Assembly (NCBI GenBank): GCA_947468085.1
Contig: CANIKY010000003.1
Coordinates: forward strand, 1,853 to 65,852
Length of the DNA stretch: 64,000 nt
Origin: Paracoccaceae bacterium
GTDB taxonomy: Bacteria > Pseudomonadota > Alphaproteobacteria > Rhodobacterales > Rhodobacteraceae
Reading direction: 5' to 3'
The position numbers and the translations under genes were made by a program. Of the stretch, positions 45,574 to 52,870 are shown in pieces. The notes below the pieces were generated by a model. The model saw only the letters and a list, made by a program, of their open reading frames with translations, made no database searches and was not told the origin of the DNA. Each line of letters begins with the position of its first letter. Position 1 is the stretch's first letter.

Positions 45574-46272
45574 TCAGGCGGTGGCGCGGTTGTGCTTGCG
45601 CAGCATATAGGCCTTGGCCGTTTCAACCGCCACTGCCGCATCGCGGCAATAGGCGTCTGCACCGATGGCTTTGGAAAACTCTTCGTTCAAAGGCGCTCCG
45701 CCCACCAGAACGATATAATCCTCGCGCATGCCCTTTTCTTTCAACGTGTCGATCACGACTTTCATATAGGGCATGGTCGTGGTTAGCAGCGCCGACATGC
45801 CCAAGATATCGGGCTTTTCAGATTCTATCGCCGCCAGATATTTCTCGACCGAGTTGTTGATGCCCAGATCTTTCACCTCAAACCCAGCGCCTTCCATCAT
45901 CATGCCGACAAGGTTCTTGCCGATATCATGAATGTCGCCTTTGACGGTACCGATCACCATCTTGCCCATGCGCGGTGCGCCCGTTGCAATCAACAGCGGT
46001 TTTAGAATGGCCATGCCACCCTTCATCGCATTGGCGGCCAGCAGCACTTCGGGCACAAACAAAATGCCGTCGCGGAAGTCTGCGCCCACGATCGTCATGC
46101 CCGCAACCAAAGCTTTGGTCAGCGTGTCATAGGGCGTCCAATTGCGCGCGATCAGGATGTTGACGCCTTCTTCGATCTCTTCTTTCAGACCGTCGTAAAG
46201 ATCGTCGTGCATTTGCAAGACAAGTTCATCGTCAGACAGTTCAGACAGGATGATTTCCTCGTCGTCGGCCAT
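45574..46272 (-). CDS. Stand-alone corrinoid (B12-binding) protein of the split methionine synthase
   Basis: Cap domain 'FVPEVLLAANAMK', 'GTVKGDIHDIGKNLV' (DxHxxG), 'SALLTTTM', 'VGGAP'. Confidence 0.93.
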   Translation of the reverse strand: MADDEEIILSELSDDELVLQMHDDLYDGLKEEIEEGVNILIARNWTPYDTLTKALVAGMTIVGADFRDGILFVPEVLLAANAMKGGMAILKPLLIATGAPRMGKMVIGTVKGDIHDIGKNLVGMMMEGAGFEVKDLGINNSVEKYLAAIESEKPDILGMSALLTTTMPYMKVVIDTLKEKGMREDYIVLVGGAPLNEEFSKAIGADAYCRDAAVAVETAKAYMLRKHNRATA

Positions 46273-46321
46273 GCTCATGCTCCTTCGCGCGTTTCTTCGT
46301 CAATGGGGCCAAAGCCCGCCG

Positions 46322-46363
46322 GCCACTTTTCCTTTAGCGACATGCCCCGAATGAAAGCCGACA
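46322..46363 (-). promoter_or_regulatory. Tandem 21-bp repeat TGTCG(G/C), resembling GATase-AraC (ArgR/GbdR/GlxA-type) regulator sites
   Basis: Minus strand TGTCGG-CTTTCATT-CG-GGGCA / TGTCGC-TAAAGGAA-AA-GTGGC; the second copy fits TGTCGC-N8-AA-N5. Confidence 0.5.
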
Positions 46364-46485
46364 GCAAGGGGGCAAGTGCGCGGCGAATTGTAAAGGATTT
46401 TGGCGGCTTGGCCTATCTGGGGGTTAGGGTATGGCAGGCAGCGATGCGCCGTTTGCGACAGTTTTGCGGGAAAGCCCCTTGTGAT

Positions 46486-46500
46486 GTTCTTATTATGTTC
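46486..46500 (+). promoter_or_regulatory. Alphaproteobacterial LexA (SOS) box GTTC-N7-GTTC
   Basis: GTTC-TTATTAT-GTTC, ending 13 bp before the radical SAM ATG. Confidence 0.8.
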
Positions 46501-46512
46501 TAAAATGGCTGC

Positions 46513-47604
46513 ATGGATCATCCAAAGCCCCTCTCGAATCCTGCCCAAAAGCTGCGTGCCCGTGGTGCTGCCAGCAACGCGGCGGGACGATTTGAGCCTA
46601 CCCAACGTGAGGTTTTCGATGATGGCTGGGATTTGCCTGCTGATCCCCACCTGCTGCGCACCGAGGTGCGCATCGAAGAACCGCGCTCTGCTATCACCTA
46701 CAACACCTCACCCGATCTGCCCTTTGACCGCTCGATCAACCCGTATCGCGGCTGCGAGCATGGCTGTATTTATTGCTTTGCGCGCCCCACCCATGCCTAT
46801 CTGAACCTCTCGCCGGGGTTGGATTTTGAAACCAAACTCATCGCCCGCCCCGGCATCGCCCAAGTGCTTGACCGCGAGTTGCGGGCCCGCGCTTACAAAG
46901 TGGCTCCCATAGCCCTTGGCACCAACACCGACCCTTACCAGCCGATCGAGGCGGAACAGCGCGTGATGCGCGATGTCTTGGCGACCTTGCTTGCCTTTCG
47001 TCACCCCGTCGCCATCACCACCAAGGGCACCTTGGTCGAACGTGATTTAGACCTGCTGGTGCCCTTGGCCCAGTTGGGCCTGACGCGGGTAGGCATTTCG
47101 GTGACCACACTTGACCCAGTCCTTTCGCGCAAGATGGAACCGCGCGCGCCAAGCCCCGCGCGCCGTTTGGCGGTGATCGAAAAGCTGGCCAAGGCGGGGG
47201 TGTCGGTGCGGGTGATGGTGTCGCCCTTGGTGCCCGGCCTGTCAGATCATGAATTGGAACCGATCCTAGAGGCTGCCGGCAAGGCGGGGGCTACGGCGGC
47301 AAGCTACATCAACCTGCGCCTGCCGCGTGAAGTGTCGCCGTTGTTTCAAGACTGGCTGGCCACCCATTACCCCGACCGCGCCGCCAAGGTCATGGCGCGG
47401 GTGCGCGAAATGCATGGCGGCAAGGACTATGACGCCGACTGGGGCGAACGTTTTACCGGCACCGGCCTATGGGCAAACCTGATGAAACGCCGCTTTCATG
47501 TGGCCGTTGCGCGCTTTGGTCTAGACCAACCGCTGACCGCCTTGCGCACTGATCTCTTCCGCGCGCCCACCGCACGGGGCGCACAAATGAGGTTTGATCT
47601 GTAA
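46513..47604 (+). CDS. PA0069-family radical SAM protein (SplB-related)
   Basis: 'SINPYRGCEHGCIYCFARP' (CxxxCxxC), 'GTNTDPYQP.E', 'ITTKG'. Confidence 0.92.
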   Translation: MDHPKPLSNPAQKLRARGAASNAAGRFEPTQREVFDDGWDLPADPHLLRTEVRIEEPRSAITYNTSPDLPFDRSINPYRGCEHGCIYCFARPTHAYLNLSPGLDFETKLIARPGIAQVLDRELRARAYKVAPIALGTNTDPYQPIEAEQRVMRDVLATLLAFRHPVAITTKGTLVERDLDLLVPLAQLGLTRVGISVTTLDPVLSRKMEPRAPSPARRLAVIEKLAKAGVSVRVMVSPLVPGLSDHELEPILEAAGKAGATAASYINLRLPREVSPLFQDWLATHYPDRAAKVMARVREMHGGKDYDADWGERFTGTGLWANLMKRRFHVAVARFGLDQPLTALRTDLFRAPTARGAQMRFDL

Positions 47605-47624
47605 GGCCGTGCTGCCTGACAGCA

Positions 47625-48641
47625 TCACCCCCGCTTGTTGCGGCGTTCGCGCTTGGGGTCGCCCGATGTGTCGCCCGTGCCATCCTTGGCCGAAGAGAAC
47701 GCGCCAAGCTTGGTCTGAATATCCTCAACCGATGGCTTGGGCCCTTTGGGCCGCGTTTCCAAAGCGTGGCGCATCGCCTTTAGATGCTCTGGCATGGTGC
47801 CGCAGCACCCGCCGATGATCTTCACCCCCGCATCACGGGCCAGCACCGCATAATCGGCCATCAGGTCGGGCGTGCCGTCATAATGGATGTGGCCATCGTG
47901 ATACTTCGGAATGCCCGCATTGCCCTTGGCAATGATCGCACGGTGGGTGTTTGTCATTTCAAACCCCAAGACCGTGCGCATCAGATCGGCCGCCCCAACG
48001 CCGCAATTGGCCCCAAAGGCCAGCGGCGGATGTGCCATCTTTTCCACCAACGCCGCCATTCCGGCAGAGGTCAGGCCCATCATCGTGCGCCCTGCGGTGT
48101 CAAAGCTCATCGTGCCGCACCACGCCATACCGGCAAGCGAGGCGGCCTCGGCGGCGGCGGCGTATTCTTCAAAGGCCGACATGGTTTCAATCCACAAAAC
48201 ATCCGCGCCGCCGGCTTTCAAAGCCTCGGCCTGTTCGTGGAAAATCTCGACGGCCAGCGCATGGGTCATGGTGCCCATGGGTTCAAAAATCTCGCCCGTC
48301 GGGCCGATGGATCCTGCCACAACCACAGGGCGGCCAGCGGCATCGGCAATCTCGCGCCCCAAACTGGCGGCCACACGGTTCAACTCTCCCACGCGGCCTT
48401 GCGCGCTGTGCAGCTTTAATCGCGCCGCATTGCCGCCAAAAGAGTTGGTTAGGAACAAATCCGACCCCGCCTGAACCGCGCCGCGGTAGAGGGTGCGGAT
48501 GTTGTCGGGTTGGTCAATGTTCCAAAACTCCGGCGGCTCGCCCGAGGACAGGCCCATATTGAACAGATTGGTGCCGGTGGCCCCATCTGCCAAAAGCCAG
48601 TCCTGCGTCGCCATCAGGCGGGACAGAAGATCTTGTGCCAT
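47625..48641 (-). CDS. bmt: Betaine--homocysteine S-methyltransferase (homocysteine-binding module)
   Basis: 'LADGATGTNL', 'TNSFGG', 'GSIGPTG', 'GANCGVG', 'KGNAGIP', 'IIGGCCGT'. Confidence 0.9.
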   Translation of the reverse strand: MAQDLLSRLMATQDWLLADGATGTNLFNMGLSSGEPPEFWNIDQPDNIRTLYRGAVQAGSDLFLTNSFGGNAARLKLHSAQGRVGELNRVAASLGREIADAAGRPVVVAGSIGPTGEIFEPMGTMTHALAVEIFHEQAEALKAGGADVLWIETMSAFEEYAAAAEAASLAGMAWCGTMSFDTAGRTMMGLTSAGMAALVEKMAHPPLAFGANCGVGAADLMRTVLGFEMTNTHRAIIAKGNAGIPKYHDGHIHYDGTPDLMADYAVLARDAGVKIIGGCCGTMPEHLKAMRHALETRPKGPKPSVEDIQTKLGAFSSAKDGTGDTSGDPKRERRNKRG

Positions 48642-48659
48642 AAGGCCCCCTTGATCCTA

Positions 48660-48974
48660 TCAGAGTTCGGTCAGCAGTTGCGCCTTCGCTTCGGGCATAA
48701 GGGCCATCAGTTTGGCACGCACGGCATCGGCGCTGGACTGGGCACCCAGATCTTTGGCAACCTTGGCGACAACATCCTCAGATCCGGCCTCGGCCATATC
48801 GGCCATGACGACCTCCATCGCGTAGGCATCGGCATCCGCCCCTGATTTGCCCAAAAGCCCTGCGGCCCAAAGGCCCAAAAGCTTGTTGCGCCGCGCTTCG
48901 GCGCGAAACTGCATTTCGGAATCATGGGCGAATTTGCTTTCAAACGCATTTTCGCGGTCATTGAACGTGGTCAT
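48660..48974 (-). CDS. DUF1476 protein (alphaproteobacterial F1Fo ATP synthase zeta inhibitor)
   Basis: 'MTTFNDRENAFESKFAHD.E.QFRAEARRNKLLGLWAA', the conserved zeta N-terminal helix. Confidence 0.9.
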   Translation of the reverse strand: MTTFNDRENAFESKFAHDSEMQFRAEARRNKLLGLWAAGLLGKSGADADAYAMEVVMADMAEAGSEDVVAKVAKDLGAQSSADAVRAKLMALMPEAKAQLLTEL

Positions 48975-49088
48975 GATAGGCCCCTTGGCTGCTTTGTGCT
49001 TTGCTGCTTCATATGCCTGCCCCAAGGCCCTACTTCAAGGGGCCCCCGCTACTTTCCGCACGGGTCTGGGGGGCTTGGCCGATCCGCC

Positions 49089-49117
49089 TTGCCGCAGGGC
49101 GGGCCATGGCGTATAGC
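49089..49117 (+). promoter_or_regulatory. Sigma70-like promoter TTGCCG-N17-TATAGC for the purC-like gene
   Basis: Hexamers at 49089-49094 and 49112-49117. Confidence 0.55.
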
Positions 49118-49189
49118 CCCCCCAGAAGGGTCGGCGCCCATGGTGCCGCGTAAGGCAAGCGCCGCCCTGTGGAAAGTTTCGGAGCGTTC

Positions 49190-49951
49190 ATGGCACGGCG
49201 CAAGAAGATTTACGAAGGCAAGGCAAAGATCCTGTACGAAGGACCAGAGCCGGGCACATTGGTACAATATTTCAAAGACGAAGGGGCTGCAGGCCCCACC
49301 GCGACCGAAGGCGAAAACCTCGCGCCGGAAGGCAAGGGCGTGCTGAACAACCGCCTGTCAGAATTCTTCATGTCGGGCCTGAATTCTATCGGCGTGCCCA
49401 CCCATTTCATCCGCCGCATCAACATGCGCGAGCAGTTGGTCCGCGAGGTCGAGATTGTGCCGCTAGAGGTTGTTGTGCGCAACTTTGCCGCCGGCGATCT
49501 GTCGGCGCGCTTGGGCATTCCCGAAGGCACGGCCCTGCCGCGCCCGATTGTGGAGTATTTCTACAAAGACCCGCGCCTGAATGCGCCCTTGGTCAGTGAA
49601 GAGCATATCATCGCCTTTGGTTGGGCCAGCCAGCAGGATCTGGACGATATCATCGCCCTTGCCCTGCGGGTGAACGACTTTTTGTCTGGCGTCATGCTGG
49701 GCGTGGGCATCCGCTTGGCCGATTTTCGCATCGAAGTGGGCAGGGTTTGGGAGGGCGATTTCATGCGCCTGCTTCTGGCCGATGAAATCAGCCCCGACAG
49801 TTGCCGCCTGTGGGACCTGCGCCGCCCTGAAGGGGCAGCCGGTGTTGCAGAGCCCGGCCCTTTGGCCGATGTCTACACCGAACTGGCACGGCGCTTGGGG
49901 GTTTTGCCTTCCAACGTCACGCATGCGCCAAAACCGACCCTGATCAACTGA
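49190..49951 (+). CDS. purC: PurC (SAICAR synthetase) homologue with degenerate substrate-binding motifs
   Basis: '[10 protein letters not shown]', 'GKGVLNNR', 'EVVVRN.AAG', '[13 protein letters not shown]' are retained; several conserved motifs are altered (see findings). Confidence 0.85.
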
Positions 49952-49968
49952 TCCTATAGGAGCCCGCG

Positions 49969-50208
49969 ATGAAAGCCCGTGTCACCGTTATGCTCAAAGC
50001 TGGCGTTTTGGATGTGCAAGGCGAAGCCGTGCGCTTTGCCTTGGGCACTTTGGGTTTTGCAGGGGTGAACGGCGTGCGCCAAGGCAAGGTGATCGAGTTG
50101 GATTTGGCCGAACCCGATGCCACCGCCGCCGAGGCTGCTGTGAAGGCCATGTGCGAGAAGCTTTTGGCCAATACAGTGATTGAAAGCTACAAGGTCGAAA
50201 TCCTGTAA
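49969..50208 (+). CDS. purS: Phosphoribosylformylglycinamidine synthase subunit PurS
   Basis: 'KARVTVMLK.GVLD.QG.AV..AL..LGF.GV..VRQGK.IELDL..MCEKLLAN.VIE.Y'. Confidence 0.96.
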   Translation: MKARVTVMLKAGVLDVQGEAVRFALGTLGFAGVNGVRQGKVIELDLAEPDATAAEAAVKAMCEKLLANTVIESYKVEIL

Positions 50209-50267
50209 GCGCCGTCTTGACCTTACCGCCGCCCTGCGCCACCCCTTGATCATCAGGGGGATCTATC

Positions 50268-51305
50268 ATGCGCGCAGCCGTTATCCGACAGTATCGGGCC
50301 GATCTTAGCCTTGAAACCGTGCCCGACCCCGTCTGTGAGGCGGACGGCGTGGTGGTCAAGGTGCTGGCCTGCGGCATCTGCCGCAGCGATTGGCACGGCT
50401 GGGTCGGCGAACATGCCAAGGTGAAACCCGGGGCCATTCCGGGCCATGAATACTGCGGCGAAGTGGTCGAAGCGGGCCCCTTGGCGCGCTGGAAGGTGGG
50501 CGAGCGGATCATTGCGCCCTTCATCCTAGCCTGTGGTGACTGCCCTGAATGCAGATCAGGTCAAACCACCACCTGCCGCGCCCAACGCGTGCCGGGCTTT
50601 GGCGAGCCGGGGGCCTATGCGGAATATGTCTCGGTCCCTCATGCGCACAACCTGACGCGCTTGCCTGATTTTCTAACGCCCGCGTTGGCGGCAGGTTTGG
50701 GGTGCCGTGTGACGACCGCCTATCATGCGCTTACGGGGCGGGCGGGTTTGCAGGCGGGCGAATGGCTGGCCATCCACGGTACGGGCGGCATCGGCCTTTC
50801 GGCCCTGATCATCGGCAAGGCGCTTGGGGCGCGGATCGTGGCGGTGGATGTGGTGGGCGAACGGCTGACCCATGCGCTTTCCTTAGGGGCCGAACATGTC
50901 ATCAACGCAGCGGAAGGCGACACAGCCGCCCGCATCCGCGAGGTGACAGGCGGCGGGGCCCATGTTTCGATCGAAGCCTTGGGGATTGCGGCCACCGCCA
51001 ATGCCTCGATCGAATGTCTGCGGCCCTTGGGGCGGCATGTGCAGGTGGGCTTGCCCACGGGGCATACAGCGCAGATGCAGATCAATATGAACGCGGTTTA
51101 TATGAAGCAACTCGCCCTTTTTGGCACGCGCGGCATGCCCGCGTGGCGCTATCCCTCGCTGTTGTCGCTGATCGAAACCGGTCAAGTCGATGTGCGCCCG
51201 ATTGTGGCGCGCCATGTTGCGCTGTCACAGGCCAGCGCCGAATTGCGCGCCTTTGACGGGCCGATGGCCCCCGGCGTGGCCGTGATCACCGATCTTTTGG
51301 GCTAA
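50268..51305 (+). CDS. Zinc-dependent alcohol dehydrogenase (MDR family)
   Basis: 'CGICRSDWH', 'GHE', structural 'CGDCPECRSGQTTTC', 'GTGGIG'. Confidence 0.95.
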   Translation: MRAAVIRQYRADLSLETVPDPVCEADGVVVKVLACGICRSDWHGWVGEHAKVKPGAIPGHEYCGEVVEAGPLARWKVGERIIAPFILACGDCPECRSGQTTTCRAQRVPGFGEPGAYAEYVSVPHAHNLTRLPDFLTPALAAGLGCRVTTAYHALTGRAGLQAGEWLAIHGTGGIGLSALIIGKALGARIVAVDVVGERLTHALSLGAEHVINAAEGDTAARIREVTGGGAHVSIEALGIAATANASIECLRPLGRHVQVGLPTGHTAQMQINMNAVYMKQLALFGTRGMPAWRYPSLLSLIETGQVDVRPIVARHVALSQASAELRAFDGPMAPGVAVITDLLG

Positions 51306-51307
51306 GG

Positions 51308-52870
51308 TCAGCGGGCCTTGGGCGCTTGCCCCTTGGTCAGGTGGTAAAACCCATTCCCCGCCACCTTGGCCCAGTCTGACGCGCTGCCATCCGGCCAGAT
51401 CACCCGCACCTCGGCCTTCGCACTGGCTCCAAGACCAAAGTGCCACCAGCCCAACTGCCCGCCCGCATGGCCCCCGCCCGACGTAATCTCGCGCCGCTGC
51501 ACAAGCTCGCCTTGGCGCACCTCGATCCACGCGCCAATGCTGTCGCGGTTGGCCCCGTCTTGATGCAGCGCAAGTTGCAGCCAGTGGCCTTTGCTTGCAC
51601 CCTCATTGCGCCACACCTCGGCCCCCGTGTTGCGATTGACAACCACGATGTCTAACTGCCCATCGTCGTTCAAATCCACAACCGAAGCGCCGCGCGCTTG
51701 GGCAAAGCTTGCCACACCGGTCCGATCGCCCGCCTCCTCAAACGTGCCATCGGGCAGGCCCAAAAGCAGGTTGTTGGGGTCTTTCATCGCGAAATCCGGC
51801 ATGGCCGACACATTGCCCTTCGCGATAAACAGGTCTTGCACGCCGTCGTTGTTCACATCCTGAAACTCGGCATGCCAACCGGTGGAGGGGTGAAAATCCC
51901 CGCCCGTATAGGGCCGCTGGGCGATGGCATGGCTGGCAAAGGCGATGTCTTTGAAGGTGGCCTTGTCTGGCCCTGCGGCCAGCACCTGCAACTTGCTGTC
52001 TGCCATCGAGGTCAGGAAGTAATCTGGAAAGCCGTCGCCATTCACATCGGTGCTGGCAATGCCCATGCCCCAGATTTTCAGCGGCTTCCACCCTTCGGCT
52101 GCCGTATAAAGGGTAGGCGGCGCATCGGGGGCGATCTGCCACATCTGCTCGGTGCCGCCCTTGTAATACTCGCGGTCGTTTGACACGCGCAAAGACGGGG
52201 TGCCAGAACGGTTCCAGTCGGTGAACAGCATCGACAGGCTGCAAAAGCTGGGTTTCAGATCAAAGGGTGCCGTAAAGCCCTGCCCCTTGGGGCGGTACAG
52301 CGCATCCGGCGTGCATGATCCCCAAGGAAAAGCTTCCTCCTTGCGGTCGATATAGGTGCCAATGGCGAATGTGGGCCAAGTCTGGCCTTTTTCCCAAGTT
52401 GCGGCAAAGGCGGTTGACCACAGATCGCGCCCGTCAAAGCCCCACGCCTCGTTGGCGCGACTAAACTGGCACTGGCCCAAACCGCGCATCACCACATCTT
52501 CGCCCGAGCGCAACAGATTAAGGTCAAGGATCCCGTCGCTGTCGATGTCCAGCGGATAGGCCCCCGTCACGCGGTCCAACTCTACCCCCGAGGTCAGCGC
52601 GGTGAATTTGAGCGCGCCCCCCGTTGGGCTTTCATTGGCGTAAAGCGTGGCCTTTTGCGTGCCACCTGCCAAAAGCAATTCCGGCTTGCCATCGCCCGAA
52701 CAGTCAAAAGCCGCAACGCCGCCGCCCGTCATAAACTCCCAATCGCCCGCATAGGTGCTGGAAACGCCGGCGGTGGCGGTTTCGTTCACATAGCGCGGAA
52801 CCTCGACATCGGCGAAAGCCGGCGCTGCCAAGGCTGGGCTGACCAGCAGGGTTAAGGCCAAAAGCCGCAT
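51308..52870 (-). CDS. CRTAC1-like FG-GAP repeat protein with C-terminal ASPIC/UnbV domain, Sec signal
   Basis: Repeats 'DCSGDGKPEL', 'DIDSDGILDL', 'DVNGDGFPDY', 'DVNNDGVQDL', 'DLNDDGQLDI'; 'NRDSIGAWIEV..GGHAG..HFGLG..V.WPDG'. Confidence 0.92.
   Translation of the reverse strand: MRLLALTLLVSPALAAPAFADVEVPRYVNETATAGVSSTYAGDWEFMTGGGVAAFDCSGDGKPELLLAGGTQKATLYANESPTGGALKFTALTSGVELDRVTGAYPLDIDSDGILDLNLLRSGEDVVMRGLGQCQFSRANEAWGFDGRDLWSTAFAATWEKGQTWPTFAIGTYIDRKEEAFPWGSCTPDALYRPKGQGFTAPFDLKPSFCSLSMLFTDWNRSGTPSLRVSNDREYYKGGTEQMWQIAPDAPPTLYTAAEGWKPLKIWGMGIASTDVNGDGFPDYFLTSMADSKLQVLAAGPDKATFKDIAFASHAIAQRPYTGGDFHPSTGWHAEFQDVNNDGVQDLFIAKGNVSAMPDFAMKDPNNLLLGLPDGTFEEAGDRTGVASFAQARGASVVDLNDDGQLDIVVVNRNTGAEVWRNEGASKGHWLQLALHQDGANRDSIGAWIEVRQGELVQRREITSGGGHAGGQLGWWHFGLGASAKAEVRVIWPDGSASDWAKVAGNGFYHLTKGQAPKAR

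Follow-up and report, generated by a model that had tools for sequence, protein, structure and literature searches.

SAICAR synthetase (PurC) is a textbook, well-characterised enzyme that is represented in the protein family PF01259 by canonical short-type proteins (TIGR00081), such as those of Escherichia coli (structures 2GQR and 2GQS) and Ehrlichia chaffeensis (3KRE), and by long-type, yeast Ade1-like proteins (NF009251/PRK12607). The residue roles used in this work come from the mechanism paper on human PAICS (PMC9376930) and, for the E. coli protein, from the contacts as quoted in PMC3261824. In human PAICS, T40, K191, K228, and R232 bind aspartate, with K228 and R232 contacting its carboxylates, N43 binds the ATP phosphates, and D137 bridges MgB and MgC (PMC9376930). 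In E. coli PurC, the CAIR-phosphate serine is S100, which corresponds to human S107, as Brown et al. 2011 (PMC3261824) quote it from the E. coli structure.

Second purC-like genes that are suspected to be inactive have been described in Thermococcus kodakarensis and T. gammatolerans, where they are truncated and lack the R215 region (Brown et al. 2011, PMC3261824). These archaeal copies share with the bacterial protein described here the presence of two purC-like genes per genome; however, they are truncated at the C terminus, whereas the bacterial protein is full-length and has lost internal motifs. Outside the PurC family, HisZ, a catalytically inactive paralogue of histidyl-tRNA synthetase, serves as an essential regulatory subunit of the short-form ATP phosphoribosyltransferase. 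HisZ could be a model for the PurC variant described below, being a dead paralogue of an ATP-using enzyme that is under selection inside a biosynthetic pathway and has retained its ligand pocket. It differs in having a demonstrated partner (HisG) and function, whereas the parent enzyme of the PurC variant belongs to the same pathway and the role of the variant is proposed here from sequence. Active PurC proteins also appear as interaction hubs: two-hybrid data for the E. coli pathway place PurK, PurE, and PurC at its centre, the animal purinosome is reported to centre on PAICS (PMC10912719), and a PurK4:PurE8:PurC8 docking model has been proposed. The SAICAR-synthetase domain of animal PAICS and E. 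coli PurC differ from the variant in being catalytically active; by analogy with them, a scaffold role would be the part that the variant has retained.

A literature search returned no paper that describes the protein as lacking activity or as forming a subfamily of its own, the nearest remark being the one on the truncated Thermococcus genes. New in this work are the map of the clade, its link with the long-type PurC, the state before the erosion, an independent replicate, the comparison of evolutionary rate with that of the live enzyme, and the connection to a phenotype in R. sphaeroides.

Short-type purC gene and its sequence motifs

The window, a 64,000-nucleotide stretch of genomic DNA from a member of the Paracoccaceae (contig CANIKY010000003.1), carries on its plus strand, at positions 49190..49951, an eroded short-type purC gene (pseudo-purC) of 253 codons plus stop, identified from its translated reading frame, its matches to PF01259 and TIGR00081, and its AlphaFold2 fold. 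The frame contains neither a stop nor a frameshift and starts with the ATG at position 49190 (MARRKK...), which is common to all homologues and is preceded by GGAG 10 nt upstream. The listed open reading frame opens earlier, with a GTG at position 49169. The protein matches PF01259 (SAICAR_synt) with 196.7 bits, the match ending at position 201 of the 233 in the profile. On the TIGR00081 equivalog model it scores 162.6 bits, below the cut-off of 189.9, and six other eroded homologues score 145-186 bits, whereas canonical short PurCs from the protein's own bacterial family reach 217-225 bits and cover the whole profile. All databases nevertheless name the eroded protein SAICAR synthetase (EC 6.3.2.6). 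The AlphaFold2 model, proposed as a check in the preliminary description of this gene, shows the PurC fold (mean pLDDT 80.5, pTM 0.78), and its best PDB matches are 3kre, 2ywv, 4fe2, and 2gqr, with TM scores of 0.75-0.81.

The purS gene (49969..50208, plus strand; PF02700, 104.5 bits) begins 17 nt past the stop codon of the eroded purC and has its own AGGAG. The same arrangement, with purS directly behind the eroded purC, is found in 85 of the 88 loci with enough flanking sequence, at a median gap of 17 nt. Upstream in the window, the minus strand encodes the ATPase inhibitor zeta subunit and a homocysteine S-methyltransferase, and a radical-SAM gene lies still further upstream on the plus strand. 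An Rfam scan of positions 46000-51500, with E values up to 1, found no relevant riboswitch or leader upstream of the eroded purC.

The motifs were compared in an alignment with canonical relatives, E. coli PurC, and the SAICAR-synthetase domain of human PAICS. The E. coli sequence used has the expected residue at each of the nine positions that Brown et al. 2011 number, and the human one was checked to be identical to residues 1-263 of 2h31_A. Conservation was counted in 88 non-identical eroded homologues and in 20 canonical ones, sorted by two criteria, one of which was the presence of DKDxFR. The pattern is repeated across 88 non-identical homologues whose genomes are independent of one another, which rules out chance or a fault of assembly.

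Five segments of the active site differ from the canonical form. Residues 31-47 (49280..49330), at the place of the 'DATAFN' loop that handles substrate and the ATP phosphates, now form a hypervariable stretch rich in Ala, Pro, Glu, Thr, and Gly; with the KDDATAFN-type loop replaced, human T40 and N43 have no counterpart in the eroded protein, and the position of T40 is taken in the window protein by A33. At the serine that contacts the CAIR phosphate (E. coli S100, human S107), the change of RNxAAGS to RNFAAGD places D103 (49496..49498). This position holds Ser or Thr in 20 of 20 canonical sequences and Glu (45), Asp (30), Pro (10), or Gly (3) in the eroded ones. The segment from K126 to A132 (K126-D-P-R-L-N-A132; 49565..49585) corresponds to YKxDxLxDP, which has become YKDPRLNAP, so that the Lys is kept and human D137 is replaced by A132. 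An Asp is present here in all 20 canonical sequences and in only 9 of the 88 eroded ones, which otherwise carry Ser, Ala, Thr, Leu, or Cys. In D178-F-R180-I-E182 (49721..49735), which replaces DFKxE by DFRIE, the counterpart of human K191 is Arg in 84 of 88 eroded sequences and Lys in 20 of 20 canonical ones, while D178 and E182 are invariant. Finally, residues 211-222 (49820..49855) replace the KLDKDxFRR motif with a hypervariable stretch of Pro, Arg, Glu, Gly, and Ala, and no residue corresponds to E. coli K211 or R215 (human K228 and R232); DKDxFR, itself a sorting criterion for the two groups, is found in 20 of 20 canonical and 0 of 88 eroded sequences.

The ATP side is preserved. The P-loop E9-G10-K11-A12-K13 (49214..49228) is retained, with G10, K11, and K13 invariant in 88 of 88 eroded and 20 of 20 canonical sequences. 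At the positions of the ATP site (E. coli K11, K13, and E179; human K131, E193, and D207), the window protein has G10, K11, K13, K126, E182, and D198, of which K126 is conserved in 87 of the 88 eroded sequences and the others in all of them. At the second and third Mg sites (human E97 and D137), E93 is kept and D137 is lost to A132. Of the CAIR contacts (E. coli R94, S100, D175, R199, and R215), three have invariant counterparts in R97, D178, and R206; D103, in place of S100, puts an acidic residue at a phosphate site, and R215 is absent. H72 (E. coli Q69), E93, D203, and S204 are likewise kept and invariant or nearly so in the 88 eroded sequences. The residues retained at the ATP and ribotide sites are thus invariant or nearly so, against 57% of core positions that are invariant overall. 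Judged from these alignments, the protein has lost the aspartate site and the CAIR-activating Mg site and has kept its ATP site, together with a large part of the site for the ribotide phosphate and ribose.

The preliminary description, made without database searches, had listed the changes in the KDDATAFN loop, RNFAAGD, KDPRLNAP, and DFRIE and the loss of KxDKDxFRR, together with the retention of EGKAK, E182, ADEISPD, the overall length, and the C-terminal tail in a frame free of stops and frameshifts; the reading frame and the alignment with canonical relatives and E. coli PurC bear out every item. Overall, the eroded protein is ∼70-77% identical to the canonical PurCs found within its bacterial family and shares with them the C-terminal tail, the location at the head of purS(-purQ), the P-loop, the Mg/ADP contacts, and the counterparts of E. 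coli R94, D175, and R199, but it lacks E. coli S100, K211, and R215, the Thr and Asn of DATAFN, and the Mg-bridging Asp, and has Arg for Lys in DFKxE.

Approximately nine substitutions are fixed specifically in the eroded clade, and most of them are conservative (K180R, V177A, L222P, A228V, V232L, and some Ile/Val swaps). The replaced loops contain no new conserved motif, which, together with the small number of fixed substitutions, argues against a re-engineered substrate site. An origin of the loops by compensated frameshifts is unsupported, as the other frames of the canonical DNA are interrupted by stops and bear no resemblance to the new loops. The low AlphaFold confidence in the loops was considered as evidence of disorder and set aside: pLDDT is below 50 at residues 31-46 and 214-220 of the eroded protein, but the control model of a canonical sibling (L153), for which the 59 sequences behind the first model were used again, has equally low values at residues 31-44 and 216-225, so that loop confidence is uninformative on the erosion.

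The C-terminal tail (49907..49948) ends in PTLIN-COOH, an ending conserved in at least 90% of the 59 aligned sequences, eroded and canonical, with P249, L251, I252, and N253 each conserved in at least 90% of them; residues 251-253 have an entropy of 0.00 both in the eroded clade and in canonical family members. The tail is missing from E. coli PurC in the alignment, and its AlphaFold2 confidence is low (pLDDT below 50 at residues 243-245 and 250-253). It could serve as a docking peptide.

Phyletic distribution and the second, long-type PurC

The preliminary description had predicted that a second, functional purC should exist elsewhere in the genome, and one was found. A second PF01259 match, on another contig (G000:C65:12697-13656), encodes a long-type (ADE1-like) PurC of 320 aa that scores 468 bits on NF009251, for which the cut-off is 371. 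All the motifs checked in this protein are intact (GKVRD, SDRISAFD, RGYLAGT, DTKYE, DEIHTPDSSRYW, and FDKD). Its gene adjoins fructokinase-like and D-Tyr-tRNA deacylase genes, outside any pur operon. The long and the eroded short PurC, although members of the same Pfam family that are found in the same genomes, show only partial overlap, with ∼32% identity, and differ in that the catalytic motifs of the long one are intact. The long PurCs of the bacterial family form a single clade (SH-aLRT 99) nested among other alphaproteobacterial long PurCs, a pattern consistent with one gain of the long PurC in the family.

In the genus of the window, every genome that has the gene carries the eroded form (83-100% identity), and the closest public record comes from a lake metagenome-assembled genome labelled Pseudorhodobacter. 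In a sample of the family comprising 151 genomes from 150 genera, in which counts refer to genomes searched, one per genus, the eroded form was detected in 12 further genera; named carriers include Rhodobacter, Tabrizicola, Pseudotabrizicola, Cypionkella, Fuscovulum, Fertoeibacter, Falsirhodobacter, Cereibacter ovatus, and C. johrii. The long PurC is found in 15 of the 151 genomes, and 14 of these 15 also encode the eroded short PurC, the exception being G129, where the short PurC is still canonical. Conversely, 14 of the 15 sampled carriers of the eroded short PurC also have the long one, and the sole eroded genome without a long-PurC match, G067, is 85% complete. Among genomes without a long PurC, canonical motifs were present in 16 of the 16 checked.

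When a maximum-likelihood tree was computed on the core columns alone, leaving out the loops, 40 eroded sequences grouped in a single clade (support 100/96); the clade spans at least 13 genera. The eroded sequence of G167, however, is the sister of the canonical sequence of G129 (100/99) and lies apart from the main eroded clade, which indicates that the erosion took place at least twice; the G167 lineage also has a long PurC. Across the class, the long PurC was found in 32 of the 251 sampled genomes. In 19 genomes of other families that carry both types, the short PurC is usually canonical, and only one clear further case of erosion (G212) was seen outside the family. Redundancy thus allows erosion of the short PurC without forcing it.

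Selection and the R. sphaeroides phenotype

Selection was assessed from pairwise Nei-Gojobori dN/dS, with residues 31-47 and 211-222 treated as loops. The core has a dN/dS of 0.053 within the genus and 0.079 across all eroded sequences, while the ratio of loop dN to core dS is ∼0.6 and ∼0.8, respectively, so the two former active-site loops drift almost neutrally. Loop 31-47 varies in length from 11 to 21 residues in the eroded clade (66 distinct sequences among the 88) and is fixed at 14 residues in canonical proteins; the C-terminal loop varies from 11 to 19 residues, as compared to a fixed 15. Both loops are rich in Ala, Pro, Glu, Gly, and Thr.

The core of the eroded protein also evolves more slowly than the live enzyme. 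In 45 genome pairs from ten genera, between which dS is near saturation, the median dN is 0.081 for the eroded core and 0.172 for the long PurC (∼2.2-fold higher), and the eroded core is the slower of the two in 45 of 45 pairs. Pairs of canonical short PurCs, taken from one genome per genus, give dN/dS values of 0.16-0.19 with saturated dS, which are not comparable with those of the eroded proteins. The claim that the gene is still maintained thus stands, the core being far from decay, and the alternative of simple decay, which had been allowed for a dN/dS near 1, is refuted. The low core dN/dS and the slower rate relative to the long PurC exclude simple decay as well as an open reading frame kept only for purS expression: the gene is maintained by purifying selection across species.

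Genetic data are available for R. sphaeroides 2.4.1, whose short PurC is RSP_2126 (250 aa, 753 bp). Letter for letter, this protein matches the C. johrii homologue; it has the eroded motifs and shares 81% identity with the window protein. Its gene has the same neighbours as in the window, namely, a radical-SAM gene, a methionine-synthase-like gene, a small hypothetical one (the zeta subunit), and purS. The long PurC is RSP_2258 (960 bp), the neighbours of which match those of the long purC in the window genome. Burger et al. 2017 (PMC5513736) used Tn-seq and report unique Tn5 insertions on LB (Table S1) and on aerobic minimal medium (Table S5): RSP_2126 had 22.5 insertions on LB and 0 on minimal medium, and RSP_2258 had 38 and 0, respectively; purS and purQ had 0 and 2 insertions on minimal medium. 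Both RSP_2126 and RSP_2258 are therefore dispensable on rich medium and needed on minimal medium (PMC5513736), and in their metabolic model the authors replaced the 'or' that joined RSP_2126 and RSP_2258 by 'and' (Table S6). On minimal medium, insertions do occur in the genes downstream of RSP_2258 (16 and 9; PMC5513736), so the requirement for the long PurC is genuine and not polar. For RSP_2126, the requirement on minimal medium may reflect a polar effect of Tn5 on purS and purQ, and the conditional essentiality that it shares with the long PurC is to be read with this in mind.

It follows that in R. sphaeroides the intact eroded RSP_2126 cannot replace the long PurC on minimal medium; in contrast to canonical short PurC, this relative of the window protein is insufficient for purine prototrophy. 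The earlier suggestion that the eroded protein is unlikely to make SAICAR is supported by this failure of RSP_2126 to substitute for RSP_2258.

Possible functions of the eroded protein

On balance, the eroded protein is probably a pseudoenzyme that arose from the operonic short-type SAICAR synthetase and acts as a noncatalytic, nucleotide-binding partner or hub in purine synthesis, an assignment that we make with modest confidence. According to this scheme, an ancestor of Rhodobacter, Pseudorhodobacter, and Cereibacter would have gained a long-type PurC, which would now be the SAICAR maker. The short PurC could then have lost the aspartate site, the second and third Mg sites, and part of the CAIR site, while keeping its fold, the ATP P-loop, the MgA/ADP contacts, most of the ribotide-phosphate/ribose contacts, and the C-terminal tail, and would have been held since by very strong purifying selection for a noncatalytic job. 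The local loss of the aspartate and second Mg sites, the small number of fixed substitutions, the conservation of the rest of the protein, and the shared PTLIN tail suggest that the chemistry has stopped and that folding, nucleotide binding, and recognition have been kept; from this we infer a noncatalytic, assembly-type role. The likeliest job would be that of a nucleotide-binding partner or hub of PurE, PurK, and the long PurC or of the PurS-PurQ-PurL assembly, and a hub role is favoured by the central position of PurC and PAICS in the reported interaction networks. A more specific and distinctly tentative version is that the dead short PurC is an obligatory nucleotide-binding subunit of a purine assembly, its PTLIN tail docking on PurE, PurK, or the long PurC or on PurS-PurQ-PurL.

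The same invariant P-loop, Mg/ADP, and ribotide residues fit an ATP-using enzyme equally well, so the protein might instead have been neofunctionalised, binding ATP-Mg and a ribotide and carrying out another ATP-dependent reaction (that of a kinase, a nonaspartate ligase, or an ATPase cycle) that is needed on minimal medium. The invariance or near invariance of the P-loop, K126, E182, D198, R97, D178, D203, and R206 in the 88 sequences, against 57% of the core, is what such an enzyme would be expected to show, as are the directional change of the phosphate Ser, to Asp or Glu in 75 of 88 sequences, the K180R replacement in 84 of 88, and, if it is not polar, the minimal-medium requirement in R. 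sphaeroides. Nevertheless, we regard this possibility, although it is the main rival and a serious one, as clearly less likely, because the loops that close the active site are hypervariable and nearly neutral, with no new substrate-binding element fixed in them, the Mg-bridging Asp and the ATP-phosphate Asn have been lost, and the clade-specific fixed substitutions number only about nine and are mostly conservative. Nor was a missing purine step found that the protein could fill among the two checked, as both purQ (contig C7) and purK (contig C80) are present.

Two further explanations fare worse. The protein could still be a SAICAR synthetase, a weak or conditional isozyme that uses other residues; its PurC fold and ATP site, its name in all databases, and the case of one archaeon whose PurC is cut short ahead of R215 and yet seems to suffice (Brown et al. 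2011, PMC3261824) would agree with that. This is improbable given that the four aspartate-binding positions have all been lost or changed, as have the Mg bridge and the phosphate Ser, that the protein falls below the equivalog cut-off, unlike its canonical relatives, that erosion is found almost only in genomes with a long PurC, and that R. sphaeroides, with RSP_2126 intact, cannot do without the long PurC on minimal medium. Least credible of all, and hardly worth considering, is a decaying gene, or a reading frame kept only for the transcription or translation of purS (and purQ) behind it. Although the active-site loops drift and purS lies 17 nt behind in nearly all genomes, purS has its own ribosome-binding site, the frame is intact from start to stop in 88 full-length non-identical homologues, and selection at the level of DNA or translation would be insufficient to produce a core dN/dS of 0.05-0.08 and a slower rate than that of the long PurC in 45 of 45 comparisons.

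If the eroded PurC, the preferred reading of which is that of a noncatalytic partner, is indeed dead, the annotations and metabolic models are wrong for a group of Rhodobacterales that includes the model organism R. sphaeroides, where the protein, as everywhere else, bears the name of a well-known enzyme. If an enzyme is dead and yet changes more slowly than the live one that replaced it, it must have another job. The system is tractable, given the genetics and the known phenotype of R. sphaeroides, with G129 offering the 'before' state, in which both copies are intact, and G167 an independent replicate. Finding that job would reveal an extra-catalytic role of PurC in alphaproteobacteria and would test whether purine-enzyme complexes are functional in bacteria. 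Should the short PurC prove to be an obligatory subunit, purine synthesis would fail without a noncatalytic protein, which would make it a HisZ-like pseudoenzyme and provide genetic evidence for a functional bacterial 'purinosome.'

Genomic neighborhood of the eroded purC gene

The pseudo-purC gene, which encodes an eroded short-type PurC protein, is a divergent neighbor of the gene for the F1-ATPase inhibitor zeta subunit (window positions 48660-49025, minus strand; PF07345, 130 bits). The related eroded short PurC of Rhodobacter sphaeroides, RSP_2126, adjoins the same zeta subunit gene, RSP_2125, labeled in that genome as a hypothetical protein. Zeta and purC thus lie side by side in more than one genus, a conserved arrangement.

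On its other side, pseudo-purC is still joined to purS, even though the purC-purS-purQ unit is broken in this genome: purS is not directly followed by purQ, whose place is occupied by a gene for a Zn-dependent alcohol dehydrogenase (50268-51305, plus strand), and purQ itself is found on a different contig (G000:C7:19387-20034). The purK gene was detected on yet another contig (G000:C80:5386-6429) with a match of 369 bits, which is above the cut-off. A single TAG is reported within the matched stretch; it could mark the edge of a gene, stem from faulty assembly, or mean that purK is broken.

The conserved C-terminal tail

The pseudo-purC product has a C-terminal tail (49907-49948, plus strand) whose last five residues, PTLIN, are at least 90% conserved among the 59 aligned sequences, in the family's eroded PurCs as well as its canonical ones. 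This tail is absent from E. coli PurC, and the match to the Ehrlichia PurC structure (3KRE) ends at residue 240 of the window protein, just short of the chain end. PTLIN looks like a putative short docking motif for some partner.

Diversity of short PurC erosion

Within the eroded clade, the protein from genome G076 (L044) sits on a long branch (0.30) and has a first loop of 21 residues. It additionally lacks the Lys that contacts the ATP phosphate (YK replaced by FN). Further decay of the protein, or a shift in its role, may be under way in this lineage.

Genome G129 encodes a fully canonical short PurC (L153) along with the long, Ade1-like PurC. In its sister, G167, the short PurC (L054) has been eroded independently, with the motifs AAGA, KDERLNNP, and KLDRES-HGGPG. 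In G212, a member of another family, the short PurC (L193) has been eroded differently, with AAGE and with DVTLT in place of DFKxE. These three genomes are natural replicates of the process of short PurC erosion.
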